DNA of 52,977 bases from Bacillota bacterium (GTDB lineage Bacteria; Bacillota; Clostridia; Christensenellales; WQRI01). The stretch spans positions 1 to 52,977 of the forward strand of contig WQRI01000003.1 of assembly GCA_009786825.1 (NCBI GenBank), read 5' to 3'. The notes below the pieces were generated by a model, which had not been told where the DNA came from, ran no database searches, and was given only the letters and a program-made list of their open reading frames with translations. The position numbers were made by a program, and so were the translations under genes. Positions 9,122 to 49,254 of this stretch are shown one piece after another; within the stretch, counting starts at the first letter, position 1; each line of letters opens with the position of its first letter.

Positions 9122-9248
9122 AATTTAAGCCCTATGTGCTACGCAATACGGCGTCAAACATCAAATTTGTTCGGATTGCGTACATCAAGTACGCGCACCT
9201 CACAAATTTTCGTTTTTCTTGTCTTGCTTGCACCTAGAACTTAAATTT
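9122..9248 (+). repeat. F2 element copy 1 (short form)
   Basis: Outer IR AATTTAAG/CTTAAATT, CTATGTGCTACGCAATACGGCGTCAA, stem AAATTTGT/ACAAATTT around hairpin GCGTAC-ATCAA-GTACGC, CTTGTCTTGCTTGCACCTAG. Confidence 0.85.
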
Positions 9249-9321
9249 CTTGTGACAAACTTCTGACTTTCAGAAAAATACGCGAGTTGTGTCTACAGCA
9301 ATAGAGAACAAAATATTAAAA

Positions 9322-9361
9322 GTGAAACAATTCATAATTCTGAATTCTGAATTCAGAATTA
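9322..9361 (-). repeat. F1 fragment E (core end plus one arm)
   Basis: GTGAAAC followed by AATTCATAATTCTGAATTCTGAATTCAGAATTA, directly upstream of the rplD SD. Confidence 0.6.
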
Positions 9362-9376
9362 CCAAAAGAGGATATT

Positions 9377-10039
9377 ATGCCAAAGGTAAAAGTATATAAT
9401 CAAAAAGGTGCGGCGGCTGGTGAGTTGCAGTTGAAAAAAGAAGTGTTTGGGGCAGAGTACAAGCCTGCGCTTATTCATCAAGTAGTGGTTGCACAACAAA
9501 ATAATTTAAGGCAAGGCACAAAGTCTACACTAACAAGGGCGCAAGTAAGGGGCGGTGGGCGCAAGCCTTGGAGACAAAAGGGTACTGGTAACGCAAGACA
9601 CGGAAGTATCAGAAACCCGCAATGGAAAGGTGGTGGGGTTGTATTTGCCCCAAAGCCTAGAGATTTCTCTCAAAAGGTTAACAAAAAGGCTAAGCGCGTT
9701 GCTATAAAGTCGGCGCTATCAAGAAAAGTAGAATTAGGCAACTTTATAGTGTTAGACGAGATTAAACTTAAAGAAGCAAAAACAAAGCAGATGGTTAAGG
9801 TGTTAGAGAACTTGAAGTTAGCAAAATCTGTTTTGATAGTAACAGATGTTAACGATGCAAGTGTTGTAAGGGCAACTTCAAACATACCAAAGACTAATAC
9901 AATAACGGCAGAGTTAATAAACGTTTTAGACTTAGTAAAGTTTACACACCTTGTAATTACAAAAGCGGCGGTTGCAAAACTAGAAGAGATGTTTACAGAC
10001 CAGCCAGTAGAAAAGGTGGCAACAAAAGTTGCAAAATAA
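9377..10039 (+). CDS. rplD: 50S ribosomal protein L4 (uL4)
   Basis: QGTKSTLTRAQVRGGGRKPWRQKGTGNARHGSIRNPQWKGGGVVF motif. SD AGAGGA. Confidence 0.97.
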   Translation: MPKVKVYNQKGAAAGELQLKKEVFGAEYKPALIHQVVVAQQNNLRQGTKSTLTRAQVRGGGRKPWRQKGTGNARHGSIRNPQWKGGGVVFAPKPRDFSQKVNKKAKRVAIKSALSRKVELGNFIVLDEIKLKEAKTKQMVKVLENLKLAKSVLIVTDVNDASVVRATSNIPKTNTITAELINVLDLVKFTHLVITKAAVAKLEEMFTDQPVEKVATKVAK

Positions 10040-10088
10040 CAAAGGCAACAACAATTGTAAATAAAATTTTCAAATAGGATATAAAATT

Positions 10089-10379
10089 ATGAATGCATAC
10101 GATATTATCTTAAAACCTGTTTTAACAGAAAAGAGTTACGATGGGGTTGCAATTAAGCGATATACATTTATTGTACACCCAGATGCTAACAAAACACAAG
10201 TTAAGCAGGCAGTAGAAGAAATATTTAAAGTACAAGTTGAAAAAGTAAATATACTAAACCAACTTGGCAAAATTAAAAGACAAGGCAGAACAAAGGGCAG
10301 GCGCGCTTCTTACAAAAAGGCATACGTTCAACTAAAGCCAAAGTCTAAATCGATAGAGTTTTTCGACAGTTTATCGTAA
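10089..10379 (+). CDS. rplW: 50S ribosomal protein L23 (uL23)
   Basis: YDIILKPVLTEKS...YTFIVHPDANKTQVKQAVEEIFKVQVEKVN. Confidence 0.95.
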   Translation: MNAYDIILKPVLTEKSYDGVAIKRYTFIVHPDANKTQVKQAVEEIFKVQVEKVNILNQLGKIKRQGRTKGRRASYKKAYVQLKPKSKSIEFFDSLS

Positions 10380-10381: not shown

Positions 10382-10416
10382 GCGCAAATATATATTTTAA
10401 CAAATATATATTTGCG
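10382..10416. repeat. A/T hairpin immediately after the rplW stop
   Basis: GCAAATATATAT-TTTAACA-ATATATATTTGC perfect 12-bp palindrome arms. Confidence 0.6.
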
Positions 10417-11605: not shown

Positions 11606-11896
11606 ATGGGTAGGTCATTAAAGAAAGGACCTTTCGTCTGCGAGAGGTTATTAAAAAGAGTAGAAGATATGAACGCAAAAGGCGAGAAAAAGCCAGTTAG
11701 AACTTGGTCGCGCTCGTCTACTATCTTCCCAGAGTTTGTAGGGCATACGATTGCTGTACACAACGGAAAAAAGCATATACCAGTATATTGCACGGAAGAT
11801 ATGGTAGGGCATAAACTTGGCGAATTTTCTCCAACAAGAACTTACTATGGGCATATAGTGGATAAGAAGAAGAAGGGTTCGGGCAAGAAGAAATAA
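11606..11896 (+). CDS. rpsS: 30S ribosomal protein S19 (uS19)
   Basis: [10 protein letters not shown]...[47 protein letters not shown] at 11597-11600. The track ORF's N-terminus is translation of F1 copy G. Confidence 0.97.
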
Positions 11897-12049
11897 TGTT
11901 AAATGCTAAATGCTAAATGTTAAATTGTTATACCGCTAGCGCGGGCAAGTTTCACCTTGCAAACTATCAAAAGGCAGAAATTGCAAACTGTTCAAATGCA
12001 GATGCTGTTAATGTGTTTAACCATTTAACATTAAAAATTTAACATTAAA
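11896..12049 (+). repeat. F1 element copy H (forward)
   Basis: AATGTTAAATGCTAAATGCTAAATGTTAAATTG, TTATACCGCTAGCGCGGGCAAG, CTTGCAAAC, ACTGTTCAAATG, CCATTTAACATTAAAAATTTAACATT. The arm begins with the last A of the rpsS TAA. Confidence 0.85.
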
Positions 12050-12108
12050 AATTATAACTTAAATTACAAAACTTAAACCGAATATTTTAAGTTTTAAGGG
12101 ATAACAAA

Positions 12109-12495
12109 ATGGCAACAAGAAGTAAAGAAAAAGCAGCAAAAAGAAAAGAAAATAAAGACAAGCGCCCGCGCGCTCACGCGAGATATATAAGAATATCTCC
12201 AAGCAAGGTGCGTATTGTTATAGATTTAATTAGGGGCAAAGAGTATTACGAGGCTTTGGCTATTTTAGAAAATACTCCAAAGGCGGCGTCTCCTATTGTA
12301 AAAAAGGTTTTAAATTCGGCGGCAGCAAATGCTGAGAATAACCTTAACCTTTCTAAAGATGGTTTGTTTGTTGCAGAAATTTTTGCAGACAGCGGACCAA
12401 CATACAAAAGGTTCAGACCACGCGCAAGGGGCAGAGCGCACAGAATATTAAAGCGCACTTGTCATATAACGGTAATACTAGAAAGCGCGATATAA
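12109..12495 (+). CDS. rplV: 50S ribosomal protein L22 (uL22), basic N-terminal extension
   Basis: [19 protein letters not shown]....A..IL...PK.A...V.KVL.SA.ANAENN. Confidence 0.95.
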
Positions 12496-12496
12496 T

Positions 12497-12655
12497 AAAT
12501 GTTAAATGCTAAATTTTAAATGTTTAATTGTTACACCGCTTAGCGCGGGGCAAAATCAATTTGCAAATTTTATACAAATCAAAGTGCTAACTGTTCAAAA
12601 TTAAAGTATTTAAAGGGTTTAAACATTTAACATTCAACATTTAAAATTAAACATT
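12497..12655 (+). repeat. F1 element copy I (forward)
   Basis: AAATGTTAAATGCTAAATTTTAAATGTTTAATTG, TTACACCGCTTAGCGCGGGGCAAAAT, ATTTGCAAAT, ACTGTTCAAAAT, AACATTTAACATTCAACATTTAAAATTAAACATT. Confidence 0.9.
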
Positions 12656-12670
12656 ATATAGAGGAAAATA

Positions 12671-13992: not shown

Positions 13993-14390
13993 TGAAAGCA
14001 AAAGAATGGAACAAGTTAACGGACGACGAGTTGATGTCTAAACTTAAAGATTTAAAAAATGAGTTATTTAACCTGCGCTTTGCCCACGCGACAAGACAAT
14101 TGTCTAACCCTTTGTCGCTTCGCACTACAAAAAAGGATATAGCAAGAATAAAAACAATTCTGCACGAGAGAGAACTTAAAACGGGTATAAAGCCTACGCA
14201 AGTTAAGGCACTAGAAACTAAGGCTGTTAAAAAGCCGGTGGAAACTAAAAAAGTTGAAGCAAAAAAAGTTGAAGCAAAAAAATCGGCTGAAGTAAAAAAG
14301 CCTACTGAGACTAAGGCGACAAGTGTTAAAAAAGTGGCAGAGGCTAAACAGACTGGCGCTATAGAAAAAAAGGCAGGAGGAGATAAATAA
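13992..14390 (+). CDS. rpmC: 50S ribosomal protein L29 (uL29), with an approximately 65-aa Lys-rich C-terminal tail
   Basis: [32 protein letters not shown] core. The ATG overlaps the rplP TAA by 1 nt. The tail contains [12 protein letters not shown]. Confidence 0.93.
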
Positions 14391-15817
14391 TGAGTGAAAA
14401 AAATATCCCTGCCACCAAGGCAGAAAAGTTAAAACAAACTATAGCAGACAACAAAGAAAAGGTTAAAGAAGCAAAGGTTGCACTATCTACTCTTCAAAAA
14501 GATGAAAAGGCAGCGTCTGCTTTAGTACTTAAATACGAAAAAAGTCTAGATACTTCTAACAAGTCTTTACAAAAGGCTGTTGGGCTTAAAGAGAGTTTAG
14601 CTTTAGCGGTAGAAAAAGCAAATGCTGGCAAGGCTGATGCGGCTGCAAACCTAAAGCAAAAGCAAGCAGATGCTAAGGCTAAAAAGGGTGACGGCAAAGC
14701 GGCGGAAGCAGTAGCAAAAGCGGAAGAGAGGCTTCAAAAAGCGAACACGTCCCTAGAGGCTGCTAAAATTAAAAACTCAGCAAACGAAATTATCATAAAA
14801 GAAAAGACTAAAGAAGTAGCGGGCATACAAAAAGATATAGAAAAAACGCAAAAAAGCGTTGCGGGTATAACTTCTAAACTACCTACGGCGCAAAAAAAGA
14901 TAGACGACCTAGAAGCAAAACTTACAAAAGCACTAGCAGACTTAGAAGCAGAAAAGGCTAAGGGCGCAGAGACTAAAGGCAAGGTTGCACCAGCGCCAAA
15001 GGCTACAGAGGCTAAGGCGGCTGCACCAAAAAAAGTTGCGGACAAGCCGGCGGCTAAGGCAGGGGCGAAAGCTGAAAAGCCGAAAGCTAGTCCAAGGGCA
15101 ACTGAAAAGGTTGCGACTAAGGTCAGTGAAAAAACAGCACCAAAGGCTACTACGGCAGAACCTGCAAAGGCTGTAAAGGCTACTACGCCAGCACCAACAC
15201 CAATAATTACTAAAAAGGCGGTAACTGTTAAGGAAGTAGATGGCGCAATTGTTGCTACTAAAAAAGTGGTAACAGTTAAGCAAGCGGGTGATAGCATAGC
15301 GGTTGTAACATCTAAGCAGGCAGTAACAGTAAAGCAAGCAGACGGAACATCAGTTACGCACAAGCCAAAAATTGTAGGCGAGTCTGATGTATCTGTATCA
15401 GAGTTTACAAGACCAGAAAAAAGGCAACAACTACAAACTGCTAAAAAGCAAAAACCACGTAAGGCGGTTGCATACTCTAGACCAGTTAAAACAATTAAAG
15501 AGGTTAAGCGCCAAAGAGAAGATGCGGCTAAAAAATCTGCAGAACTACTAGTAGAGCGTGCAGAGCGCAGACCACTTAGAAAAACAAGAACAGGAATTGT
15601 CGTATCTAACAAAATGGACAAAACAATTGTTGTTGCTGTTGTGTCTAAAGTTAAGCACCCAATCTACAAAAAAACAGTTAACCAAACAAAGAGATATAAA
15701 GCGCACGACGAAAACAACACAGCGGGCATAGGCGACACAGTATTAATTGCAGAGACTAGAAAACTTTCTAAAAACAAGTATTTTAGACTAGTAGATATTG
15801 TTGCACGCGCCAAATAA
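14390..15817 (+). CDS. rpsQ: 30S ribosomal protein S17 (uS17) fused to an approximately 391-aa N-terminal Lys/Ala-rich extension
   Basis: The C-terminal 84 aa (from about 15563), [69 protein letters not shown], are canonical S17. SD AGGAGGAG, and ATG 14390 overlaps the rpmC TAA. No start codon or SD lies near the core. Confidence 0.9.
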
Positions 15818-16029: not shown

Positions 16030-16404
16030 ATGGTACAAATGCAAACGAGGCTAGTAGTTGCAGATAACTCTGGTGCAAAAGAGATTATGTGCATTAGGGT
16101 ACTAGGCGGCTCATTTAGAAAAAGCGGTAATATTGGCGATATAATTGTAGCAAGTGTTAAGTCGGCAAACCCGGGCGGAAACGTTAAAAAGGGTGATGTT
16201 GTAAAGGCACTTATTGTTAGAACGCACAAGGGCATAACGCGCCCAGATGGCTCTACAATTAAATTCGATGATAATGCGGCAGTAATAATAGATAATAACA
16301 AGCAACCACGCGGAAGCCGTGTTTTCGGACCAGTTGCAAGAGAAATAAGAGATAAAGATGCGGCTTTTGCAAAAATAGCATCTTTAGCACCAGAAGTTTT
16401 ATAA
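16030..16404 (+). CDS. rplN: 50S ribosomal protein L14 (uL14)
   Basis: [23 protein letters not shown]...[36 protein letters not shown]. Confidence 0.98.
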
Positions 16405-16608
16405 ATGTTAAATTGTAAATGTTAAATGTTTAATGGTTTCACCGCTAGCGCGGGCAATATTATATTTGCAAATTGTATTAATTATGAAAATGCAGGCTGT
16501 TAAAAAGTTTGGTATATAATGAGTTCAGCCATTTAACATTTAAAATTAAACATTTAACATTTACAATTTAACATTAAAATAAGCATTTAACATTAAAAAT
16601 TTAACATT
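16404..16608 (+). repeat. F1 element copy L (forward, extra partial right arm)
   Basis: AATGTTAAATTGTAAATGTTAAATGTTTAATG, GTTTCACCGCTAGCGCGGGCAAT, ATTTGCAAAT, GCTGTTAAAAAG, ATGAGTTCAGC, CATTTAACATTTAAAATTAAACATTTAACATTTACAATTTAACATT, plus a second arm piece at 16584-16608. Confidence 0.9.
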
Positions 16609-16623
16609 AATATAAGGGTGAAT

Positions 16624-17167: not shown

Positions 17168-20100
17168 ATGAGTAAGGAAAAAAATCAGGTTGCTAAAGCA
17201 ACTGCAACCGATAAAACGAAAAAGCCAGCAGACAAAAAAGTTGTGGCTAAAAAAGAAACTGCTGCTAAAAAGCCAGCGGTAAAAAAAGAAGCGAAGCCAG
17301 CAGTTAAAAAAGAAACTGCTGTTAAGAAGCCTGCTAGTGCGGGTGCTTTAGATATTTCTAAGCAAAAAGCGGCGGCGTACAAAGTGTACGAGGCTAGCAT
17401 TAAAACAATCGCTGGTATAGAAAAAGATTTAGGGGCTTCTCACCTACAGCAAGCAAAAGCACTAGAGGCTGTAAGCAAACTTAACAAGTCGGCGGAAGCG
17501 CTTGTGACTAAGCAAGGCTCACTTCAAAAGCAATCTGATGATGCTAAGAAAAAACTTGAGGTGGCAAACAAAGAAGTTACAACTGCTAAGGCAGAAGTTA
17601 CAAAAGTAAAGGCTACGGCAACAAAAGCAAAGGCAGATGCATCTAAGGCAGAAGCAGATTTTAAAAAGGCGCAAACAAAAGTTGCACCTATTAAAGATGC
17701 GGTTGCAAAACTAGATAAAGAGTTAAAGGGCGCAAACGAAGCAACGCAAAAGGTTAAAAAAGCGGTTGTAGATACGTCCAGTGCGCTTAACACAACGGCT
17801 AAAGATGTAGAGGCTACATCTAAGGCTGTGCAAGATACATCTAAAACATTGCAAGACAGCACTAAGGCTTTAGGGGTTGCTGCTAAAGAAACTATTAAGG
17901 CACTAGAGAAGTTAAACAAAGTAAAAGCGGGTGACGACAAAGCAAAAAAAGCGGCAGAAGCCGAGCATAAAAAAGCGGTTAGCGCAGAAGAAAAGGCTAA
18001 GGCTTCTAACGAGAAGGCTAAGGTTGCAAGCGAAAAAGCAAAAGCGGCAAGCGAAAAGGCTAAGGCTGTAAACGAAAAAGCAAAGGCGGATAATGCTAAG
18101 GCTAAGACTGAGTCTAAAAAGTCTGATGAAAAACTAGCAAATGCGCAAAAAGACCAAAAGGCAAAGCAAGCAGACTTAACAAAGGCAGAGGCAGATGTTG
18201 CTAAGTTGTCTAAAGCGGTTGAGAGTGCAAAAACGGCGCAAAAATCGGCAGAGACAAAAGCGACGGCGCACGAGCAAAAAGTTAAGACGCTTGAGACAAA
18301 ACTTAAAGCAGAAAAAGATAAAGAAACAAAAATTTCGGCAGATATAAATAAAACAAAAGCAGAACTAGATAAAACAAAAAAGCAACTAGTTGTAGAGACT
18401 AAAAAAGAAAAAGACATAACAACTAAAGTATCTAAACTAGAAAAAGATGTAGACAAAGCGGCAAAAGAAAAAGAGAAGGCTTTTAACGCTTTAGTTAAGG
18501 TTATAACAACAGACATCAATCAAACAGAAGCGCAAAAAATTGCGGTAGACAAAGAGTTAACAAACGCTAAAGGGCAAGTTAGCACATTGGCTAAAGAAAA
18601 CACGGCTTTAAGCGCGCAAGTTAAAAAGTTAGAATCAGATGTTGCAAAAGCAACGCAAGGCTCTAACAAGTCGGCAGAAAAGGCAAAGCAGACAGCAGAG
18701 CGTGTTAAAAAGGCGTCGTTAGATGTTAAAGAAGCAAACAAAAAAGTACAAGAGAGTTTAAACGACCTTGTAAAAATAGATAAAGACACTAAAAAAGAAA
18801 GAGACGATTTTGCTAAAGCAGTAGAAAAGGCGGGCGCGCAAGATAAGGCGGCTAGTGATAAGTTAAACGCTAATTTTGCTAAAGCAAAAGCAGATATAGA
18901 TAAGGCTAATGCAAACAAAACAGCGCTAGAAGATGCTAGAAAAAAGGCTACAGAGCAACTAGCGCAAGCGCACCAAAAGTATAAAGATGCAGATGCGAAA
19001 GTTAAACTAGCGGGCAAAGAAAAGGTTTCGGGAGAGCTTCTAGATAAAATTAACAAAACGTTTGCGGGCGCGGCGGAAAGGCTAGAAAAGGCAAAGGCAA
19101 CAGAAAAGACTGCTAAAGACAAAATTGTGGCAAACGACAAACTAGTTAAAGACAAAGAAAAAGAGTTAGCAAAACACAAAGCAGACCTAGACAAACTTAA
19201 CAAAAAAATACAAGCAGACAAAACTAAGAGTGCGGACGCTAAAAAGAAACTAGATGAAAAAATAAAGGGGCTGATAGAAAAAACTAATGCTAAGCGCGAG
19301 GCGGCAAGTAGTGCTAAAGCAAAAGCAGACGAGGCTTTCAAGCAAGCAGAAGCACAAAATGCTCAGATTGTAGATGAAAAGAAAAAGGCAGATGATGTTA
19401 CAAAAACGTTGTCAGCGCAAAAGCAAGATGTAGATAAGAAGTTCCCTGTTGTTGCTAAACAACTAAAAGATGTTGAAGCGACTATTGCAAAAAATGAGCC
19501 TGTATCTAAAGCGCTAGGGGTAGAGATTGCAAGTAAGCGTGCAGAACTAGAGGCACTAATTGGCAAAACTAAAATGCCGGCGGTTAAAAAGCCAGCGGAA
19601 GTTAAAGTTGTTGCTAAGCCAAAACCACCAGCAGTTATTGCTAAGCCTGAGACTAAGGTGGCAGACAAAGCACAACCTAAGGTGGCAGATAAGGCAGAGC
19701 CGGTTAAGCCAGTTGCCCAGCCAATTGTAAGGGACAGAACTGCTGCTAAAGCGGATGCGGCGGCTCAGCGCGAGCAGCAACGTGCAGACCAAGTGGCTGC
19801 TAAACTGCAAAGCCAAAAGCAAGCGGCAGAGGCAGAAGCGGCAAGGCGCGCGACTGCTAAAGTTGAGGGTGATACTAGGCGTGCGGCAGAGCAAGCGGCA
19901 GCGGCTGCAGAGCAAGCGGAAGCAAGGCGTGCAGAAGCACTAGCAAGGCGCGAAGCAGAAGCACAAGAGGCGGCGACTAGCGCAGAAGCGGCAGAGCGCG
20001 AAAAACTAGCGACTCAAAAAGCAGAAGAAAAGGCAGCGGCAGAAAAAGCGACAAGGGAAGCAGAGGCAAAAGAAAGAGCAGAGCGCGAAGCGGCAGAAGC

Positions 20101-20749
20101 AAAAGCAAGGGCAGAGCGCGAGGCACTAGAGCGCGCTAAAAGAGAGGCTCAAGCACGCGAAAAAGCGGCAGAAGCGGTTGCAAAACTTAAGCGCCCAGCA
20201 ACGCCAAGACACCGCCTAAAACAGCACTACATCAACAACGTTATGCCGGCTTTAATGAAAGAGTACGCATACAAAAATGTAATGCAAGTTCCTAAAATAG
20301 ATAAAATCGTACTTAATATGGGGCTAGGCGATGTTAAAGACGACAGCAAAAAACTTCAGCAAGCGGTTAAAGAGTTAGAGCTTATCGCGGGTCAGCGCCC
20401 TGTTATCACTAAGGCTAAAAAATCTATAGCAACATACAGACTACGTCAGGGTATGAGCATAGGTTGTAAGGTAACACTTAGAGGCGAGCGTATGTACGAG
20501 TTTTTAGATAGATTTATCTCAATAGCACTACCAAGAAAGCGCGACTTTAGGGGTATCCCATCAAAGTCTTTCGATGGTAGGGGTAACTACGCAATGGGTA
20601 TAAAAGAACAACTTATTTTCCCAGAAATCTCGTACGATACTGTAGACAAAATAAGGGGCTTCGACATTGCAATTGTTACAACAGCCTACACAGATAAAGA
20701 AGCACTATCTCTACTTAAATCACTAGGCTTACCATTTACGACAAACTAA
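17168..20749 (+). CDS. rplE: 50S ribosomal protein L5 (uL5) fused to an approximately 1015-aa N-terminal Lys/Ala/Glu-rich, coiled-coil-like extension
   Basis: The last approximately 178 aa (from about 20213), [40 protein letters not shown]...[20 protein letters not shown], are canonical L5. A single uninterrupted ORF of 1193 aa. No ATG/GTG/TTG with SD lies at the core boundary. Confidence 0.88.
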
Positions 20750-21030: not shown

Positions 21031-21215
21031 TATCAAGCACTATAAACGGCGCAATACTTCGTTAAGGTTTACGGTTTTCTTGTTTGCGTACGCCAAGTAC
21101 GCGGCACGGCGAAAATCCGCACCTTTCCGACCGAGCCGTAAACCGTAAGGTTTTAGCCTTTTGCGTAGCAAAAGCGTCAAAAGGCGAGGTGTCTTGCTTG
21201 TTTCTAGCACTTGAT
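21031..21215 (+). repeat. F2 element copy 2 (long form, with the 65-nt module)
   Basis: Starts at the base after TAG. Outer IR TATCAAGCAC.../...GCACTTGATA, hairpin GCGTAC-GCCAA-GTACGC, module CGACCGAGCCGTAAACCGTAAGGTTTTAGCCTTTTGCGTAGCAAAAGCGTCAAAAGGCGAGGTGT at 21128-21192. Confidence 0.88.
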
Positions 21216-21337
21216 ACGACATTCTACTCAATTTGGTTAGTTTAGAAATATTGAATTGTAGAGACATATTCACAAACCAAAATCTAGGGGGTAAGTAGGT
21301 TTTAAGCCTATACTGCTTCCAAGGAGGTATAAATAAA

Positions 21338-21730
21338 ATGACAGATCCTATAGCAGATATGTTAACAAGAATTAGGAATGGGCTGATGGCAAAGCACGAC
21401 ACGGTTGAGATTCCTACAAGCAAAATTAAAAGAGCAATAGCAGATATATTGCTAAGTGAGGGCTTTATAAACAAGGTAGAATACTTCGATGAAAAGCCTC
21501 AAGGCAGTATACGCATAACACTAAAGTACGGCAAGGGTGGCGAAAAGGTTATAAGGGGCATTAAAAGAATATCCAAGCCGGGTCTTAGAATTTACTCGGG
21601 CTATAAAGATATTCCGCGTATTTTAGGTGGTATGGGTGTTGTAATACTTTCTACTCCGCACGGCGTGTTGTCAGACAAAGAAGCAAGGCAACATAAGGTG
21701 GGGGGCGAAGTATTGGCTTATGTATGGTAA
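21338..21730 (+). CDS. rpsH: 30S ribosomal protein S8 (uS8)
   Basis: [15 protein letters not shown]......V.IP.SK.K..IA.IL..EGFI...ISKPGLR.Y......P....G.G..ILST..G...D. SD AGGAGG. Confidence 0.97.
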
Positions 21731-21766
21731 AAGTTCTATGTACTTCGTTATGCTTCGTTGAGATTT
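21731..21766 (+). repeat. F2 left-end fragment
   Basis: AAGTTCTATGTACTTCGTTATGCTTCGTTGAGATTT matches the F2 left end (compare 48961-48990). Begins right after the rpsH TAA. Confidence 0.5.
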
Positions 21767-21922
21767 TTACCAGCAATAATAAAGAATACCCATTAAGTCA
21801 ACTTAGTGGGGAACGCCCGCCTAGTCGCATTTGCGATATATAGGTTGCACCTTTGGTTTATGCCGTTGGTTTGCACTATAAGCAATGCGTTATAAGTTTA
21901 TAGGCGGAAGGAGATAAATATT

Positions 21923-25160: not shown

Positions 25161-25162
25161 TC

Positions 25163-34287: not shown

Positions 34288-34326
34288 AAAACCTTTAAAT
34301 GTGCTTTGCTATTTAAAGGTTTTTTG
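34288..34326 (+). terminator. Rho-independent terminator closing the ribosomal super-operon
   Basis: Stem AAAACCTTTAAAT (34288-34300) / ATTTAAAGGTTTT (34311-34323), 10-nt loop, trailing T-run. Confidence 0.8.
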
Positions 34327-40255: not shown

Positions 40256-42268
40256 ATGTCTATCATCAAAATGAAAAAAATGACAGCCGTTGGGTTGCTG
40301 TCTGATAGAGATGTAATACTTAACGAGATTGAAAGGCTGCAATGCATTGATATATCTAACCTAGATGGCGTAGAGCGAACAAAGTTTGACGCTGATAGTG
40401 GTTTTGTGTATCAGACTAAACTTGAAAGGGTTACGCAGGCTATTAAATTTGCTAACGAGTATTATAGCATCTTAAAAAAGAAAAAGCAAAATACATATGG
40501 GGCGGAAGCGGTAATAGAGGGTGGCAGTTTAGACATCTCGCACGATAAGTTTTTGTCTTTTTACGAAAACGAGCAAATATTTGTAGAGGCAGAAAAACTT
40601 TTAGAAATTGCGGGCAAAACTACGCTTGCTAAAAGAGAGTACGACTCACTTTTAAACAAGCGTAATGACGCTAGGTTTTTTAATAATTTCTCTAACAAGT
40701 TTTCTGAAATGAGACTAAGCGCGGCTACTGTAAAGTTTTTAGGAACAGTAAAGACCAAAGCGGTAGACAGCATTATAAAAGAGATTGGCGAGAGCGAAGA
40801 GTATTCTAGCCTTGGCATTTTATTCGAAGTTGTGGGCGGCGCTAAAAAAACAAGTGGTGTTTTGGCGGTTGCGGCGGTTGAGCATAAAGAGAAGTTAGAG
40901 GCTTTATTACACACTTACGATTTTAAGCCAACAATGCTTAAAGACGACAAAACGGGCGTAGAGCTTTTAAACTATATAGACACAAAGGTTGCGGCTTTAG
41001 AAAAAGAAATTTTTGATGGTCAAACGCAGGTTATGCAAATTTACGCAAAAAGTGGCACAGACTTTAAAATTGCTCACGATAGTTTGCTTTCAGCGCTAGC
41101 AAGGTTAGATGCAACACAAAGCAGTTTAAAAACAAGAACGGCGTTTGCGTTTACGGCGTGGGTGCCAGAGACTCATCAAGATGATGTTAAAACTGCGCTT
41201 GAGAAAGCCTGCACTAGAATAGAAGTTGGTTTTGATGAGGCAAGCGAAGAAGAAACCCCACCTACATATTTAAAAAACCCTAAGTTAGTAAAGCCATTTG
41301 AGAGCGTTGCTAATATGTATAGCCCGCCAAGCCACAAGCAAACTAACCCAACGCTTTTTGTTGGTGTGTGGTTTTGGATATTGTTTGGCGCGATGTTGGG
41401 CGACTTGGGCTATGGGCTTATCTTATTTGTGGGTCTTGGTCCTTACCTTTTAATTAAAAAGCCACAAGGTGGTTTTGCGGCAGTACTAAGAGTTTTAGCA
41501 ATGTGCGGACTTGCGGCAATATTCTGGGGATTAGCCTTTGGCTCTTTCTTTGGAGTTCCACCACAGTATTTGGGCGGTTTTGGTGACTTTTTAACAACAG
41601 TATCATTTATAGACCCACTATCCGATGCAGTAGATATGATGATGCTTTGTATAATAATAGCGTGCTTACACCTTGGCACATCTAACATATTTGGTTTGGC
41701 AGAAAGGGCAAGGGAAGGCAACTTACTAGAGGGCATAATTAAAAACGGAAGTTGGATGCTAATATTGTTTGGGCTTTTCTTTGTACTGATTGGTCAAGAA
41801 GAGTTTATGGGCGCTGAGTTATTTATGACGGGCATAGCGGCGCTAACTACACTAGGCTTGGTGTTTATTGTGGGCGGAACAGTATTACTTTTAGCAAATG
41901 GATATCAGAGTAGGTCTATATTCGGAAAAGTGTTTGGCGGGCTTGGCGGGCTTTATGGTTATGTTAATCATTTATCAGATGTACTATCATATCTACGTGT
42001 ATTAGGTTTGGCACTTTCTACGGGCGTATTCGGGCTTGTATTCTTTAGTTTGGCGCAGATGTTTGCAGATGCGGGCGGGGCTGCTATAATAGGAAGCGTG
42101 CTAGTTTTAATTGTGGGGCATACATTCTCACTTGCGCTTGCACTTTTAAGCACGTATATCCAAACACTTAGATTACAGTTTGTAGAATCGTTCCCGCGTT
42201 TTTACGAGGGTGGCGGTAGACTGTTTGTTCCATTCGGCGGACAACATAAATATGTAAAAGTAAATTAA
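40256..42268 (+). CDS. ntpI: V-type ATPase subunit I (a-type membrane subunit)
   Basis: 670 aa: hydrophilic N-terminal half, polytopic C-terminal half with LSYLRV.GL.LS motifs. Position is second in the ntp operon. Confidence 0.88.
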   Translation: MSIIKMKKMTAVGLLSDRDVILNEIERLQCIDISNLDGVERTKFDADSGFVYQTKLERVTQAIKFANEYYSILKKKKQNTYGAEAVIEGGSLDISHDKFLSFYENEQIFVEAEKLLEIAGKTTLAKREYDSLLNKRNDARFFNNFSNKFSEMRLSAATVKFLGTVKTKAVDSIIKEIGESEEYSSLGILFEVVGGAKKTSGVLAVAAVEHKEKLEALLHTYDFKPTMLKDDKTGVELLNYIDTKVAALEKEIFDGQTQVMQIYAKSGTDFKIAHDSLLSALARLDATQSSLKTRTAFAFTAWVPETHQDDVKTALEKACTRIEVGFDEASEEETPPTYLKNPKLVKPFESVANMYSPPSHKQTNPTLFVGVWFWILFGAMLGDLGYGLILFVGLGPYLLIKKPQGGFAAVLRVLAMCGLAAIFWGLAFGSFFGVPPQYLGGFGDFLTTVSFIDPLSDAVDMMMLCIIIACLHLGTSNIFGLAERAREGNLLEGIIKNGSWMLILFGLFFVLIGQEEFMGAELFMTGIAALTTLGLVFIVGGTVLLLANGYQSRSIFGKVFGGLGGLYGYVNHLSDVLSYLRVLGLALSTGVFGLVFFSLAQMFADAGGAAIIGSVLVLIVGHTFSLALALLSTYIQTLRLQFVESFPRFYEGGGRLFVPFGGQHKYVKVN

Positions 42269-42271
42269 TTC

Positions 42272-42430
42272 AATGTTAAATTTTAAATGTTTAATGTTTA
42301 ATGGTTTCACCTGCTTCGCGGGCAAGTTTCATTTTGCAAATTTAAAGCAAATGAAAACTGCGACGCTCAAATGTACGGCATATAATGAGTTTAACCATTT
42401 AACATTTAAAATTAAACATTTAACATTTTA
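42272..42430 (+). repeat. F1 element copy V (forward)
   Basis: AATGTTAAATTTTAAATGTTTAATGTTTAATG, GTTTCACCTGCTTCGCGGGCAAG, TTTTGCAAAT, ATAATGAGTTTAAC, CATTTAACATTTAAAATTAAACATTTAACATTTTAAAT. Confidence 0.88.
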
Positions 42431-42486
42431 AATAAATAAATAAAATTCATAAAGTTGGTTTTGTGTAACCAACAAGGAGAAAAAAA

Positions 42487-43129: not shown

Positions 43130-43226
43130 TAAGTTTTAAGGGCTAGGGGCAGTTTAACGGTAACACTTAAATTATAGAGAGCAAAAAGTTAATGCAAATT
43201 TTTAGAGTTTGCACGAGAGTAACAAA

Positions 43227-43808
43227 ATGGGTAAAAAAGAAATTATTTCTAAAATTTTAGAAACTGCTAAGGCAGAAGCAGACCTTCTTTTGTCGGAGGC
43301 ACAAGCAGAAGCAGAAGCGCTTATAGGTTCGGCTCAAGCTATGGCAGACAGAAGTTATAAAGATGCTTTGCAACAAGCCGAGGCAGAAGTTAGGGCAATT
43401 AAAGAAAGGCAAGAGGCATCTAGCAAAAATGCAACTCGTGATGTTTATGTAAATGCGCAAAACGAGGTTTTAGAAATTGCGTTTTCTAAAGCGCGCGAGG
43501 CTTTTGCAAAGATGAAAGACGCAGACTATAAAAAATTGTTTGAGACACTTATAATATCAGTTGCGGACGATGGCGACGAGGTTGTTGTATCTAAAAAAGA
43601 TGAGAAAGTGTTTACGCAAGCTTTTATAGATGGTGCTGCTAAAAAGGCTGGTAAGAAGTTAAAAATAGCAAAGCATAAAAATGAATTGCAGTCTGGGCTT
43701 TTATTAACGGGCAAAAGGGCAGACAAAATTATAACAATAGAAGCACTTGTTGCAAACACGCGCGTAGATATAGAGCCAAGTGTTGTAGCGCAACTAATTA
43801 ATGCATAA
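43227..43808 (+). CDS. ntpE: V-type ATPase subunit E
   Basis: Charged helical N-terminus ISKILETAKAEADLLLSEAQAEAEALIGSAQ. Size and position match NtpE. ATG 43227 is preferred over TTG 43209. Confidence 0.8.
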   Translation: MGKKEIISKILETAKAEADLLLSEAQAEAEALIGSAQAMADRSYKDALQQAEAEVRAIKERQEASSKNATRDVYVNAQNEVLEIAFSKAREAFAKMKDADYKKLFETLIISVADDGDEVVVSKKDEKVFTQAFIDGAAKKAGKKLKIAKHKNELQSGLLLTGKRADKIITIEALVANTRVDIEPSVVAQLINA

Positions 43809-43820
43809 ATGCATTAATTA

Positions 43821-43979
43821 GATTGAACATTGAACACTGAACATTGAATAATTGTTAAATACGATAAACACAAAAGCGTTTTAACAGTTGTAACTTGGTT
43901 TTGCTGGAATTTTTGAAATGTAATATTTCTTGCGAAGCAAGGTGAAACAATTGTTCATTGTTAATTGTTCAGTGTTCAG
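43821..43979 (-). repeat. F1 element copy W (reverse)
   Basis: Arm GATTGAACATTGAACACTGAACATTGAATAATTG ... TTTCTTGCGAAGCAAGGTGAAAC (hairpin CTTGC-GAA-GCAAG), arm AATTGTTCATTGTTAATTGTTCAGTGTTCAG. Confidence 0.85.
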
Positions 43980-44004: not shown

Positions 44005-44991
44005 ATGGGAAATTTATTTGCGAATGGTAGAATTGTTGTTATCAGAAACAACTTAATGTCGGCAGAGGCTATAAACAGACTTGCTAAGGCTGAGAATATG
44101 TCTGTTGCTTTATCTATGCTAACGGACGCGGGCTACAACGCAGAAGCGCTTAAGGCGGGCGACTTCGAAAAAGCAATAAGGCTAGAGCAAGCTAAGACAA
44201 TAGAGGTTTTTGAGAGCGTAGCAACAAATTCTAGCGTGCGACGGGTTTTTCTATCTAAACTAAACTATCACAACGCTAAGGCGCTTTTAAAAATAAAGTT
44301 TGCGGGCATTAAAGAAGGCGACTTAATGCTTTATGATGGTAGCGACATTAGTGTTGCCGAGTTAAACAGATTTATAGAGCAAGGGGACGGCAATTTCGAC
44401 ACTAACTTGCACGCGGCTATACGCGAGGTTATAGACACTAGCAAAAGAGAAAGCCCAAGGGATATAGATTTAACAATAGACGGCGCACTTTTCGAAGTTA
44501 TTAAAAACGAGATAAGGGGTGTTAAGTGTACTACGCTTGCAACTTACGTGAAGTCTGAGATAGACTTTATAAACATACTATCCGTTTTAAGAACAAAGCC
44601 TTTAAACTTTTCGGTAGACCAACTTGCTTCGTCTTTAATTAGTGGGGGCAACATACCTTTAACTACTTTGATAATGGCTTACGCAAACGAGCAACCTTTA
44701 GAGTTTTTAAACTCTATAAGGCTGTACTACCCGCAAGTTATTGCAGATGTTATAGATGGTAGCGCGCAAGGTAGTGTGGGTGATATCACACTTATTCTAG
44801 AAAGAGAAGCAGACAACTATTTGCTAAAACTGTTTGATGAAAAGAAAAACAACTTTACGGGAATACAACCCTACATCGCATACTATCTATCTAAACTAAA
44901 CGAGATAAGGGTTGTAAAACTAATACTAATAGCAATAAAATACGAGTTGCCACCAGAAGCGTTGGCAAAACGTATGCGCAAAATATTTTAA
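44005..44991 (+). CDS. ntpC: V-type ATPase subunit C (d-type)
   Basis: 328 aa. Position between E and F(G) subunits, and helical composition typical of V-type subunit d/C. Confidence 0.75.
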   Translation: MGNLFANGRIVVIRNNLMSAEAINRLAKAENMSVALSMLTDAGYNAEALKAGDFEKAIRLEQAKTIEVFESVATNSSVRRVFLSKLNYHNAKALLKIKFAGIKEGDLMLYDGSDISVAELNRFIEQGDGNFDTNLHAAIREVIDTSKRESPRDIDLTIDGALFEVIKNEIRGVKCTTLATYVKSEIDFINILSVLRTKPLNFSVDQLASSLISGGNIPLTTLIMAYANEQPLEFLNSIRLYYPQVIADVIDGSAQGSVGDITLILEREADNYLLKLFDEKKNNFTGIQPYIAYYLSKLNEIRVVKLILIAIKYELPPEALAKRMRKIF

Positions 44992-44993
44992 TT

Positions 44994-45147
44994 AATGTTA
45001 AATTTTAAATTTTTAATGGTAAATGTTTTCACCTGCTTCGCAGAAATATTTATTTGCAAGTTGTTCGCAAGTGAAAATTCTGACTGTCAAAAGAAAAAAA
45101 CACAAAGGATAAAACAATTAAAAATTTAACATTTAAAATTTAACATT
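44994..45147 (+). repeat. F1 element copy X (forward)
   Basis: AATGTTAAATTTTAAATTTTTAATGGTAAATG, TTTTCACCTGCTTCGCAGAAAT, ATTTGCAAGT, GACTGTCAAAAG, arm CAATTAAAAATTTAACATTTAAAATTTAACATT. Confidence 0.88.
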
Positions 45148-45161: not shown

Positions 45162-45488
45162 ATGGCAAAAGGTAAAATAGCAGTAATTGGGGATAAAGAG
45201 AGTATAATTGCTTTTAAGGCAGTTGGTATGGAGACGTTCCCCGTAGAAAAAGATAAAGACGAGATAAGAAAAACTTTGCGCCGCTTAGCAAACGAAGAGT
45301 ACAGCGTTATATTTATAACAGAAGAAGCGTGCGAGGGGCAAGACGAAATTCTAGAGCGCTTTATGGCACAACCTTTCCCATCAATCATACCAATACCAAG
45401 CTCTAACGGCACAATGGGTTTAGGTATGACCAACTTGAAGCGAAATATAGAGAAGGCTATAGGGGCGGACATTCTATTAGGCGAATAA
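45162..45488 (+). CDS. ntpG: V-type ATPase subunit F (NtpG)
   Basis: KIAVIGDKESIIAFKAVGMETFPV......E......L.....Y.VIFITEE is typical of V-type F subunits, 108 aa. Confidence 0.85.
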   Translation: MAKGKIAVIGDKESIIAFKAVGMETFPVEKDKDEIRKTLRRLANEEYSVIFITEEACEGQDEILERFMAQPFPSIIPIPSSNGTMGLGMTNLKRNIEKAIGADILLGE

Positions 45489-45613
45489 TTTAAGCGCTAT
45501 ATGCGGCGTAATACTTCGTTGAATGTTACGGTTTTCTGCGGTCACGTACAATTAGTACGCTCCCTTGAAAATCCGCCATTCGCCTTGTCTTACTTGCATC
45601 TAGCACTTAAATT
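45488..45613 (+). repeat. F2 element copy 7 (short form)
   Basis: Outer IR AATTTAAGC/GCACTTAAATT. The first A is the last base of the ntpG TAA. CTATATGCGGCGTAATACTTCGTT, TTACGGTTTTCTGCGG, hairpin CGTAC-AATTA-GTACG, CTTGTCTTACTTGCATCTAG. Confidence 0.88.
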
Positions 45614-45749
45614 TAGCGTTTAGCATTGCACTTTTAAAGATATAAAAAGGTTTTATATATAAACTACACACAAAATAATTTTTTTAGGGGGTGTGGGGGA
45701 ATTTTTTTCCCAAAAAACTGTCCCCCGCAAAACAAATAAAGAGGAAAAT

Positions 45750-47513
45750 ATGGCTGGTAAAATTGTAAAAGTATCGGGACCATTAGTTGTAGCGTCGGGA
45801 ATGGCAGATGCTAGAATGTACGACGTTGTACAAGTTTCTAAAGAGAGGCTGATTGGCGAGATTATAGAGCTTAGGGGCGATATGGCGTCTATTCAAGTTT
45901 ATGAAGAGACATCGGGAATCGGTCCGGGTGAGCCTGTAGTTTCTACGGGCGCGCCGCTAGAGTTAGAGCTTGGTCCGGGGCTTGTTGAAGGAATTTTCGA
46001 CGGAATACAGCGTCCGCTAACAGAAATTATAAAGTTAAGCGGCGAGCGTATTGCGCGTGGCTTAGAAGTTCATAACCTAGACAGAAATAAAAAATGGGAG
46101 TTTAAAGCAACCGCTAAAGTTAAAGACAAAGTGGCGGCGGGCGATGTTATTGGCGTTGTTCAAGAAACCCCGCTTGTAGAGCATAGGATAATGGTGCCGT
46201 TTGGGGTTGATGGCGAGATTACAGAAATCAAGTCGGGCAACTTCACAATAGTAGATGTTGTTGCAAAAATCAAAACTAAAGACGGCGTACGCGATGTTAT
46301 TATGATGCAAAAGTGGCCTGTTAGGCGTGGCAGACCTTATGCTTCTAAACTTAGCCCAGATATCCCACTTATGACAGGACAACGCAGCATAGATATGTTT
46401 TTCCCAATTGCTAAGGGGGGTGTATCTGCTGTTCCGGGTCCGTTCGGGTCGGGCAAAACAGTTGTTCAGCACCAACTAGCAAAGTGGGCAGATGCCGAGA
46501 TTGTTGTATACGTAGGCTGTGGCGAGCGCGGTAACGAGATGACAGACGTTTTAGTAGAATTCCCAGAACTTGCAGACCCAAAGTCTGGCAGACCACTAAT
46601 GGAGCGCACAGTTTTAGTTGCTAACACATCAGATATGCCCGTTGCGGCGCGCGAGGCTAGCATATACACGGGTATTACAATAGCAGAATATTTTAGAGAT
46701 ATGGGCTACTCTGTTGCTATAATGGCAGACAGTACATCGCGCTGGGCAGAAGCACTTAGAGAAATCTCGGGCAGACTAGAAGAGATGCCGGGTGAAGAGG
46801 GCTACCCTGCTTACTTAGGCTCGCGAATTGCAGAGTACTACGAAAGGGCTGGTCGCGTAAACTGTTTAGGCACACAAGGGCGCGTTGGTGCAATATCGGC
46901 AATCGGTGCAGTATCGCCACCGGGTGGCGACTTAGCAGAGCCAGTATCTCAAGGCACGCTGAGAATAGTAAAAGCATATTGGGGGCTGTCATCATCACTT
47001 TCTTACAAGCGTCACTTCCCAGCAATAGACTGGCTATTATCATACTCGCTTTATGTAGAAACACTAGGCAAGTGGTACGACGAAAACGTTGCGCCTGATT
47101 GGTCGGCTAACAGAAAAGCGGCAATGGCATTACTTCAAGAAGAAGCGAAGTTAGATGAGATTGTAAGGCTTGTAGGTATGGATGCATTATCGCCAAGAGA
47201 TAGATGGAAAATGGAAAGCGCAAAATCGCTAAGGGAAGACTTCTTACAACAAGATGCATACGACAAAGTAGACACTTACGCATCGCCACAAAAAATGATA
47301 ACGCTGCTTCGCATAATAATGAATATGTATAAGTTGGGTAACGACGCTTTAGACGCAAACGTAGAAATTAGAGACCTACTTAAAATAAAAGCGTTCGAGC
47401 AACTAGGTCGGGCAAAGTTTAACCCAGAAAAAGACTTACACATTATAGAAAAAATCGGCACAGATATGGTTGATGAAATTGGCGAATTAATTGCAAAAGG
47501 AGGGCAAGACTAA
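45750..47513 (+). CDS. ntpA: V-type ATPase catalytic subunit A
   Basis: [15 protein letters not shown]....A.MYD.V.V....L.GEII.L.GD.A.IQVYEET.G..PGEPV. P-loop [17 protein letters not shown] at 45739-45744. Confidence 0.96.
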
Positions 47514-48949
47514 TGTTTGTAGAATATAAAACGATTAATGAAAGTGTCGGACCTCTTATGCTTGTAGAGGGTGTTAGGGGCGTTAAGTATAACGAACTTG
47601 TAGAAGTTATTCAAATTGATGGGCGCGTTAGAATGGGCAGAGTTTTAGAAATGAACGAAGATAAGGCGCTTGTTCAGTTGTTCGAGTCTTCTCAAGGGCT
47701 TCAGATTAATACTTCACGCGCTAGGTTTATCGGTAAGTCTCTAACTTTCGATGCTAGCCCAGACATTTTAGGGCGCGTATTCGACGGGCTAGGCAGAACA
47801 AAAGATAGCGGACCACCAGTAGTAGCGCACCAGCGTTTAGACATAAACGGGCTACCAATAAACCCAGCAGCAAGAACATTCCCATCAGACTTTATTCAAA
47901 CAGGCGTATCGGCAATAGATGGCTTAAACACGCTTGTTAGGGGACAAAAACTTCCGGTTTTCTCGGCTTCGGGCTTGCCGCACGCGCAACTTGCTGCACA
48001 AATCGCAAGGCAAGCAAGGGTTTTGAAAGCAGATGAGAGTTTTGCGGTTGTTTTCGCGGCGGTTGGTATAACGTACGAAGAAGCAGATTATTTCGTACAA
48101 AGTTTTAAAGAAACGGGCGCAATAGACAGAACAGTTATGTTTATGAACCTAGCGGACGACCCGGCGGTAGAGCGTATCGCTACACCGCGTATGGCGCTTA
48201 CGGCTGCTGAGTATTTGGCGTTTGAACTTGATATGCACGTACTTGTTATAATAACAGACATCACAAACTATGCGGACGCGCTTCGCGAAGTTTCTGCCGC
48301 TAGAAAAGAAGTTCCGGGCAGGCGTGGTTATCCGGGCTATCTATATACAGACCTAGCATCTATGTATGAGAGAGCAGGTTGTATCAAGGGCAAAAAAGGC
48401 TCTATCACGCAAATACCAATTCTAACAATGCCAGAAGATGATAAGACTCACCCAATTCCAGACTTAACGGGCTATATCACAGAAGGGCAGATAATGCTAG
48501 ACCGCTCACTTAACAAAAAGGGTATATTCCCACCAATAGATGTACTGCCGTCACTCTCACGCTTAAAAGATAAAGGTATGGGCGAGGGCAAAACAAGAGA
48601 AGACCACTCTAGCGTACTAAACCAACTTTTTGCGTGCTATGCGCGTGGTAAAGATGCTAAAGAACTAGCGTCTATACTAGGTGAAGCGGCACTAACAGAT
48701 ATAGACAAAATCTACGCAAAGTTTGCAGAAGAGTTTGAAAAAGTATTTGTAGGGCAAGGCTGGCAAACAAACAGAAATATAGTAGACACGCTAGATATAG
48801 GTTGGAAACTTATGGGTATGCTTCCAAAGTCAGAACTTAAGCGCGCCAAAGCAAACCACATAGAAAAATACTATGTGCCAACTCAAATAGGCGAGGGCGG
48901 CTTAGCAAAAAAGATACCGGGGCAGATTGACAAAAAAGAACAACACTAA
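47513..48949 (+). CDS. ntpB: V-type ATPase subunit B
   Basis: EYKTI..V.GPL..VE.V.GV.Y.ELVE......R.G.VLE...D.A.VQ.FE...G...RGYPGY.YTDLA..YERAG. The ATG overlaps the ntpA TAA by 1 nt. Confidence 0.96.
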
Positions 48950-48952
48950 TAA

Positions 48953-49080
48953 AAATTAATGTCTATATGCGGCATAATACTGCGTTGAGATTTACGTTTT
49001 GTTTCGGTCACGTACAATAAGTACGCTCCCTCACAAATCCGCATCTCGCCTTGTCTTATTTGCATCTAGCCATTAATTTA
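48953..49080 (+). repeat. F2 element copy 8 (short form)
   Basis: Outer IR AAATTAATG(T)/(G)CCATTAATTT, CTATATGCGGCATAATACTGCGTTGAGATTTACG, hairpin CGTAC-AATAA-GTACG, CTTGTCTTATTTGCATCTAG. Confidence 0.85.
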
Positions 49081-49123
49081 AGGGTATCTTAAAACGATTT
49101 TTAAAAAAGCAAAGTGTAATGCA

Positions 49124-49254
49124 TAATTAAGCACTAGAAGCAAGCTAGGCAAGGAAATCTGCGGCTTTGCGAAAGGCGCGTACCACTCGGTACGTAACTT
49201 GAGCAAAACGTAAAGATTGACGAAGCATAGCGAAGTTTATAGGGCTTAATTAAC
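49124..49254 (-). repeat. F2 element copy 9 (reverse orientation)
   Basis: The reverse complement reads GTTAATTAAGCCCTATAAACTTCGCTATGCTTCGTCAA...CGTACC-GAG-TGGTACG...CTTGCCTAGCTTGCTTCTAGTGC. Convergent with copy 8. Confidence 0.85.

Follow-up and report, generated by a model that had tools for sequence, protein, structure and literature searches.

Work on interspersed hairpin repeats, such as the REP, ERIC, BOX and Correia sequences, has so far been confined almost entirely to cultured Proteobacteria and to a few pathogens. The REP/BIME/REPIN sequences of Enterobacteria and Pseudomonas, with their RAYT Y1 transposases, are chromosomal, extragenic hairpin repeats present in many copies. ERIC (or IRU) sequences of enterobacteria (127 bp) and Correia (NEMIS) elements of Neisseria are imperfect palindromes of about 125 bp that are co-transcribed with flanking genes into long RNA hairpins, with orientation-dependent effects on mRNA and cleavage by RNase III. 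The attC sites of Vibrio cholerae repeats (123-126 bp) also lie directly past an open reading frame (ORF) and are imperfect palindromes with conserved unpaired bases and variable stems. The subject here is F2, a repeat found in a stretch of 52,977 nucleotides (nt) from Bacillota bacterium (GenBank assembly GCA_009786825.1, contig WQRI01000003.1, positions 1 to 52,977 of the forward strand; the window hereafter). F2 is a real and apparently undescribed family of hairpin-forming repeats of about 125 bases, comparable with the systems above, conserved across bacterial orders and present in the chromosomes of abundant uncultured gut Clostridia.

F2 resembles the REP group in being a chromosomal, extragenic, multi-copy hairpin repeat, and REPINs in the length of its hairpin (about 100-125 nt), in the absence of a target-site duplication (TSD) and in its tail-to-tail dimers and clusters, as in BIMEs. 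Its variants are genome-specific with compensated stems, most copies have no adjacent transposase, and the units follow genes within operons, in very many cases no more than 15 nt from the stop. In E. coli, a stop codon is found within 15 nt of 260 of 496 REPs, and these stall terminating ribosomes, according to a study cited in PMC12306157. F2 shares with ERIC and Correia sequences its palindromic character, size and probable co-transcription, although Correia elements have 26-bp terminal inverted repeats (TIRs) and a TA duplication, neither of which is present in F2, and ERIC copies, which closely resemble one another in sequence, lack the pervasive stem covariation of F2. The likeness to attC sites extends to length, fixed orientation directly past an ORF, a structure that is kept more than the sequence and a bottom strand that forms the better-defined hairpin.

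Our preferred reading, given a probability of about one half, is that F2 is a family of the REP/REPIN/ERIC kind, with small palindromic units that are non-coding, are interspersed in the chromosomes of gut Clostridia, to which they are native, and are spread in trans by a hairpin-recognising enzyme. F2 is filed as a new variant of that general kind and as a member of no named family; the formal tests for REPs (a GTAG tag and a doublet structure), for TIR-defined miniature inverted-repeat transposable elements (MITEs) and for attC sites gave a negative outcome.

Copies, fold and covariation of F2

A degenerate pattern built from the invariant columns of nine copies, and written as the reverse complement of the element (GCGTACN{5,7}GTACGN{22,28}CGNNGNATNNNGNNGNNNATA), gave nine matches in the window against 0.00 expected, these being all nine copies and nothing else, and a covariance model made from 106 copies (R1, filters off) recovered the same nine with no additional full copy. 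An earlier note on this DNA had listed nine full copies and four fragments, and both lists are borne out: eight copies are forward and one is reverse, and the four terminal fragments comprise one left-end piece (21731) and right-end repeats (30833, 30878 and 33675). The central motif CGTAC-N5-GTACG, which the note had regarded as invariant, occurs eight times in the window against 0.01 expected, seven times in F2 copies and once (17376) inside the L5 gene, unrelated to F2. The N5 loop therefore holds in seven copies, but those at 22464 and 49124 carry CGTACC-GAGT-GGTACG in its place, and the hairpin itself covaries in other genomes. Six copies are of a short form (about 126-130 nt) and three, at 21031, 22464 and 33471, are of a long form (about 187-190 nt), the extra length being due to a nested internal insert of 61-62 nt. 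The copies and fragments, with the genes that they adjoin, are as follows.

9122-9247, plus strand: short F2 copy, beginning 9 nt past the stop of the L3 gene (ORF 8306-9112)
21031-21216, plus strand: long F2 copy, directly past the TAG of a short ORF that is S14-like by our own reading; nested insert at 21129-21189
21731-21768, plus strand: F2 left-end fragment (CTATGTACTTCGTTATGCTTCGTTGAGATTT), immediately past the stop of the S8 gene (21338-21730)
22464-22653, plus strand: long F2 copy with its basal stem overlapping the TAA of the L6 gene (21923-22465); nested insert at 22563-22624; apical hairpin of the GAGT form
29770-29899, plus strand: short F2 copy adjoining the stop of the IF-1 gene, which lies at about 29549-29770 by offset from locus L109
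30665-30793, plus strand: short F2 copy, 1 nt past the TAG of the S13 gene (30290-30664)
30833-30891, plus strand: right end of the 30665 copy, partially repeated twice in tandem (GCTCGCTTCTAACCATTAAAAAT at 30833, TAACCATTAAAAAT at 30878)
33471-33657, plus strand: long F2 copy, at the last base of or directly past the rpoA TAA (32514-33470) and upstream of the L17 gene; nested insert at 33569-33629
33675-33693, plus strand: right-end repeat (ATCTACAACTTCAAATCAT) of the 33471 copy
45487-45613, plus strand: short F2 copy with its basal stem overlapping the TAA of the V-ATPase F subunit gene (45162-45488)
48953-49079, plus strand: short F2 copy, 3 nt past the TAA of the V-ATPase B subunit gene (47513-48949)
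49124-49252, minus strand: the sole reverse F2 copy, tail to tail with the 48953 copy and ending 14 nt before the start of the V-ATPase D gene (49266)

The fold of every F2 copy is one long imperfect hairpin, and the z-scores run from -2.7 to -6.3. The anatomy comprises a basal stem that differs by lineage, three or four covarying internal helices, asymmetric internal loops with conserved sequences (TAT, TTC, T and TGCGTC on the left; TCCTT, C, TC and CTA on the right) and a short apical hairpin. The proposal that F2 is a structured family, whose termini vary yet stay paired and whose enclosing stems change by compensatory substitution, is confirmed by an alignment of 106 copies (A2), in which RNAalifold places 28 pairs in six helices, with double compensatory changes in 20 of them. 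In this alignment 93.6% of cells are paired, as against 73.4% with shuffled columns and 25-45% with partners slid by 1-3 columns; 623 cells are changed on both sides (190 shuffled, 92-144 slid), and the covariation score is 0.516 (0.151 shuffled, 0.06-0.12 slid). Columns 23-126, for instance, hold UA in 64 copies, AU in 35, GC in 6 and CG in 1, with none broken, and similar exchanges are seen at columns 42-109 (GC 65, AU 36) and 44-107 (GC 48, AU 42). Even helices that had been regarded as constant covary in some copies, GCAATAC/GTCTTGC being replaced by GCTATGC/GCCTAGC, and the apical hairpin becomes CATAC/GTATG in locus L076 and TTTAC/GTAAA in locus L060. The evidence for covariation in the alignment was drawn from columns that its seed pattern did not constrain. 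All of the covariation joins the left arm to the right arm.

The basal stem measures 7-12 bp in most copies and is not random for each copy. Identical stems appear at unrelated loci within one metagenome-assembled genome (MAG) and in related MAGs, examples being AAAACGRCG/CGYCGTTTT, GAATCGCG/CGCGATT, TTTGAGCGC/GCGCTCAAA and CTAAGCCCG/CGGGCTTAG, and those of the window share a common AATTTAAG-like theme. Because stems recur in this way, and because empty short hairpins with F2 basal stems were not found in the listed MAG loci, the basal stem is considered to belong to the element and to evolve by compensated change. The outer inverted repeat had been described as copy-specific; it does vary while remaining paired, but its specificity is to the lineage or subfamily rather than to the copy. 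Insertion of F2 into pre-existing stop-codon hairpins, which would explain copy-specific outer stems, was rejected as a general explanation in view of the missing empty hairpins and of the identical stems at unrelated loci. Some subfamilies keep an unpaired 3' tail past the basal stem, GACGAGTDGCGTACTGTATC or AACGGTRAC, seen in MAG right flanks (e.g. L010, L047, L064 and L101; L015, L016, L020 and L065), and in these lineages the element may be longer than the hairpin.

Stop-codon coupling and strand asymmetry

The most striking property of F2 in this analysis, and one absent from the earlier note, is its coupling to stop codons. All eight forward copies of the window begin 0-9 nt from the preceding stop codon or overlap it, the upstream genes being those for L3, the S14-like ORF, L6, IF-1, S13, RpoA and the V-ATPase F and B subunits. 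Across the family, a simple ORF model puts 102 of 123 copies on the strand of their upstream gene, and with copies anchored on the conserved TAT a long ORF reads into the left end in 99 of 124. In about 85 of those 99 the stop codon starts no more than 24 nt upstream of the TAT, or at +2, with peaks at -8, -10, -12 and -13, which is inside the basal stem; the stop is usually TAA (71 of 99), and in eight copies the TAA inside TATAA serves. In 80 of 116 copies the stop codon of an upstream gene on the same strand falls within the left basal stem or adjoins it, compared with 6 of 116 in a mirror test of the other end and the other strand, and together with the stop positions this indicates that the stop codon is typically in the paired base of the hairpin, with its complement TTA in the right arm. 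REPs differ in this respect. The next gene downstream lies at a variable distance, between about 0 and over 1,000 nt. The units have one orientation, with the left basal stem at the upstream stop, and so are located inside operons, with which they would be co-transcribed.

The genes before F2 are housekeeping genes, including ffh, serS, lysS, clpX, ybaB and those for ribosomal proteins. Orthologous sites after ffh, serS and ybaB hold F2 in several MAGs, each copy having the stem variants of its own genome, and among orthologues of the ffh-rpsP spacer L076 is empty and L081 retains a left-end fragment only. Past this fragment, at the ffh stop of L081 (1-330, minus strand), an unrelated unit of about 60 nt (TCATTCTGACCGTAGGGAAGAATCCCACGGAAGAAAGTACGGACTTGCGTAATTAGGGATA) occurs twice and represents another repeat family of that MAG.

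The coupling to gene ends is central to the main rival of our reading, in which F2 is mainly a cis-acting RNA of the host, a conserved intercistronic or 3'-untranslated hairpin of the sense transcript that is bound by a likewise conserved RNA-binding protein or nuclease (RNase III, RNase Y or an exonuclease barrier). The position of the stop codon would then let terminating ribosomes open the base and so couple termination to processing or decay, and mobility would be merely the origin of the element. Such a role would account for the gene-linked orientation and the excess over the mirror test, for the presence of F2 within essential operons and behind ffh, serS, lysS, clpX, ybaB and other highly expressed genes, and for unpaired loop sequences that are conserved across orders. 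It is kept alive by the recurrence of F2 at orthologous sites of different MAGs with compensated divergence, and by the good pairing of the old, diverged copies of the window. We nevertheless consider it unlikely. F2 has no relative in Rfam, the sense strand is the weaker folder, and G:U pairs are in no excess over A:C. Terminal fragments, tandem arrays of partial units and nearly identical copies at loci that are unrelated are what a self-copying repeat leaves behind.

Sense-strand RNA under selection would normally tolerate G:U pairs and not A:C mismatches. Of about 2960 cells, about 55 are G:U and about 63 A:C (some 2% each), as a constraint at the level of DNA or of a duplex would produce, and single-sided changes are rare. 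In 115 of 128 copies the better fold is that of the strand antisense to the upstream gene, with means of -48.3 against -40.6 kcal/mol (Wilcoxon p about 3e-20) and thus a mean gap of 7.7 kcal/mol in favour of the bottom strand, and DNA parameters likewise favour that strand in 4 of 4 copies. The antisense strand is the more stable because the conserved mismatches of the sense strand, U:C and A:C, become G:A and G:U, and because its loops are purine-rich. As G:U is no commoner than A:C and the antisense fold is the better one, the data point to a constraint on Watson-Crick complementarity of both arms, or on the bottom strand, rather than on a sense-strand RNA; either the bottom-strand fold matters, or the orientation that gives the mRNA the weaker hairpin survives. 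On the same grounds, the discrete RNA species of about 125 nt implied by the earlier note is without sequence support. Between 20500 and 35000 of the window, a part with five of the nine copies, none of the terminator-like sites falls on F2, their number equals that in shuffled sequence, and there is no excess of promoter-like sequence. Some MAG subfamilies have a basal stem made of an A-run and a T-run.

A bottom strand that folds better by 5-10 kcal/mol, with RNA and with DNA parameters, raises the further alternative that this strand is the functional form, either as a single-stranded DNA hairpin site for a strand-specific recombinase, in the manner of integron attC, or as an antisense RNA. 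The conversion of the conserved mismatches to G:U and G:A on that strand is compatible with this, as are the attC-like characters of F2, namely fixed orientation after an ORF, frequent overlap with the stop, an imperfect palindrome of about 125 nt, conserved unpaired bases and variable stems. The entry of a 61-62-nt insert at one internal-loop position in three copies also implies that this position is a specific target of some process. However, the attC core sites RYYYAAC (left) and GTTRRRY (right) occur together in 0 of 116 copies, the flanking genes encode ribosomal proteins and ATPase subunits in conserved operon order and are not cassettes, and no integrase or other recombinase recurs nearby, there being no integrase among the window ORFs examined. 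An antisense RNA would find no promoter-like excess to drive it in the part of the window scanned, and with genes co-oriented with replication the bottom strand would be the leading-strand template, which is probably little exposed as single strands. A function of the bottom strand in either form is thus improbable.

Copying and the search for a mobiliser

Within one MAG, copies from unrelated loci are up to 90-96% identical, which implies that units were recently duplicated to new sites or that conversion took place among them. The window and loci L103 and L034 contain tail-to-tail dimers, and duplicated left or right ends are common. In L060 (540-880, minus strand) a full copy is followed by tandem partial units with a period of 113 nt, without the left end and with the apical hairpin TTTAC..GTAAA, and in L107 (4700-5210, minus strand) a full copy is followed by a similar tandem partial array.

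A further alternative is an ordinary MITE, that is, an internally deleted insertion sequence with TIRs that is moved by a DDE transposase, and the size, palindromic ends, multi-copy dispersion and intergenic location of F2 are compatible with one. Even so, this origin is very improbable. A TSD of 3-8 bp was not detected, k-mers in the flanks matching no oftener than in shuffled pairings, and TA was not found at both ends of F2. A left end-ORF-right end arrangement, as in an autonomous parent, was present in none of 110 loci nor in the window, and no transposase is found nearby. The ends of F2 are its most variable and covarying parts and its interior loops are conserved, which is the reverse of a TIR-defined element; the earlier observation that such termini are atypical for TIR-defined MITEs agrees with the absence of a TSD and of a TIR-bearing parent.

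No mobilising protein was found in the neighbourhood of F2. All-versus-all clustering of 729 ORFs gave no protein family in more than 7 of 108 loci, and those families checked by Pfam were housekeeping proteins. A phmmer search with an IS200 TnpA sequence as query gave no match in the loci, which amount to about 0.85 Mb (up to 8 kb per MAG), a search that would miss a single-copy gene elsewhere in the genome.

According to our preferred reading of F2 as a REP/REPIN/ERIC-like repeat, an enzyme whose gene lies elsewhere in the genome would copy the units in trans to further gene ends, recognising the folded hairpin and leaving no TSD, most plausibly by way of single-stranded DNA. The likeliest candidate would be a single-strand-DNA (HUH/Y1, RAYT-like) transposase or a comparable recombinase, and both arms would change together because the hairpin must stay recognisable. 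Orientation would be maintained by survival, in that the mRNA receives the weaker-folding strand with its A:C and U:C mismatches, whereas the opposite orientation would put a far more stable hairpin into the transcript or into lagging-strand template DNA. A resident F2 may serve as a hairpin between cistrons or at the 3' end, with the terminating ribosome opening its base, and, by analogy with REPs, might modulate translation termination, nuclease processing or mRNA decay.

Several points weigh against this reading. Membership of the REPINs would lead one to expect a cognate single-copy RAYT (Y1 HUH transposase) gene in the genome, usually flanked by repeats, and the IS200 TnpA query found no such mobilising enzyme in the loci of up to 8 kb per MAG. 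The GTAG/GTGG foot of REPs is not conserved, a GTAG tag being present at the hairpin foot in only about 15% of copies; the inner right boundary is TCTACG (antisense CGTAGA) in 17 of 116 and TCTCCG, TCTAAA and others elsewhere. A REPIN consists of two self-folding REPs in inverted orientation, but within the left half of F2 no hairpin covaries (columns 26-27 and 36-37 change uncompensated), so the halves are not REP-like hairpins and F2 is not a REP doublet. Its sequence, including that of the loops, is conserved across orders, from Christensenellales to Phascolarctobacterium, which is unusual for species-specific REPs. The copies of the window have a mutual identity of only 55-80% and yet pair well, and the presence of F2 at orthologous sites could mean selection on each resident copy, hence a host function, and not selfish turnover. 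Finally, the seed pattern of the family alignment prescribed the apical hairpin together with ten positions of the left arm, and conservation at those columns is by construction.

The nested insert (GACCGAGCCGTAAACCGTAAGGTTTTAGCCTTTTGCGTAGCAAAAGCGTCAAAAGGCGAGG; 61-62 nt) has a hairpin of its own and occupies an identical internal-loop position in its three F2 hosts. The inserts are 97-98% identical, compared with only 66-76% for the host F2 bodies, and no further occurrence was found in the window or in 190 loci, save L109, which is the same contig. The insert looks like a younger mini-element that specifically targets F2, and its exact repeated entry into one loop of three copies hints that the hairpin itself is a recognised substrate. 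A rather unlikely proposal is that gut Clostridia possess an unrecognised system in which a trans-acting enzyme recognises a strand-specific hairpin and places or maintains it exactly at the stops of highly expressed genes, with the stop codon in the hairpin base. If true, this would amount either to a TSD-free single-strand transposition or recombination targeted to sites of translation termination, or to a host-selected device that couples the arrival of the ribosome at the stop to mRNA processing.

Distribution and other features of the window

The F2 pattern was scanned over one genome per species, with chance matches estimated at a handful. More than 108 loci match, nearly all of them in Clostridia MAGs from animal and human guts; among the matches listed are Christensenellales, Ca. 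Scatosoma, Borkfalkiaceae and 'Clostridia bacterium', plus three Phascolarctobacterium. The sequences extracted from these loci have one architecture throughout, and the covariance model gave 134 matches in 0.8 Mb of MAG loci, including copies that the pattern did not catch. No match was found in plasmids by blastn with a window copy and with a MAG consensus, nor in phages by blastn with the MAG consensus, and the pattern occurs in one of 2.9 million viral contigs; the chromosome thus looks like the home of F2.

A comparison with Rfam, proposed in the earlier note as a means by which F2 might be assigned to a known repeat or RNA family, produced no such assignment. Rfam 15 has no F2 match at gathering thresholds in the window or in 17 MAG loci, and a search at lenient E-values of 45400-45700, which contains one F2 copy, gave as its sole match a chance miRNA (E 1.1) downstream of the copy. 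Searches of the literature found no description of the element. With regard to REP surveys, PMC3733652 makes no mention of Firmicutes and the table of RepRanger (PMC12306157) has three Bacillota genomes; in neither are Clostridia named.

The stop codon in the hairpin base, the clean covariation and the gap in stability between strands make F2 a good system in which to study the choice of gene ends, action as DNA versus RNA and the enzyme that moves such repeats. The covariance model can also flag the elements in MAG annotation, where they would otherwise inflate 'intergenic' space and may pass as novel non-coding RNAs.

The window itself, which comes from a metagenome contig, contains the S10-spc-alpha cluster of ribosomal-protein genes (L3, L4, L2, S3, L16, L29, S17, L5, S8, L6, L18, S5, L30, L15, SecY, Adk, Map, IF-1, S13, S11, S4, RpoA and L17), followed by a permease, an amidohydrolase and the V-type ATPase operon, with nearly all genes on the plus strand. 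F2 lies within the ribosomal-protein and ATPase operons and reaches a density of one copy per 6 kb. Ribosomal operons related through SecY (L111-L190) were tried as a source of filled and empty sites and set aside. The closest SecY proteins in the metagenome collection are only 52-54% identical (contigs Ga0123353, Ga0209755 and Ga0123354), and F2 is carried by only one locus of the set (L115, 50% identity), where it also adjoins the secY stop. The organism of the window seems to belong to a poorly sampled lineage.

Some ribosomal proteins of the window have very long N-terminal extensions (17168-20749, 14390-15817, 23228-24511 and 24513-25160), which are rich in Lys/Ala/Glu/Pro repeats where the DNA was inspected (L5, S17, S5 and the start of L30). 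L5 has 1193 residues with its Pfam domains at 1037-1190, S17 has 475 with a domain at 402-468, S5 has 427 with domains at 265-410, and L30 has 215. Extensions of this kind are most unusual in a bacterium.

A second and more abundant repeat family, presumably the one termed F1 in the earlier note, forms arrays of AATGTTAAAT / ATTTAACATT-type units inverted around a CCGCGCTAGCGG-type hairpin. It is seen in spacers such as 5421-5600, 6508-6690, 11879-12070, 12482-12670, 16388-16615 and 25133-25330, and also at 27292-27480, 30886-30965, 42256-42450 and 44978-45147, and in the ribosomal operons it and F2 together take up many of the spacers between genes. At the stop codons of other genes, or just past them, are short palindromes that are perfect or nearly so (10383-10416, 28980-29005, 34288-34323 and 43794-43821). 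They have the flavour of F2 basal stems without being F2; one of them, CTAATTAATGCAT..ATGCATTAATTAG, overlaps the stop of ORF 43209-43808.

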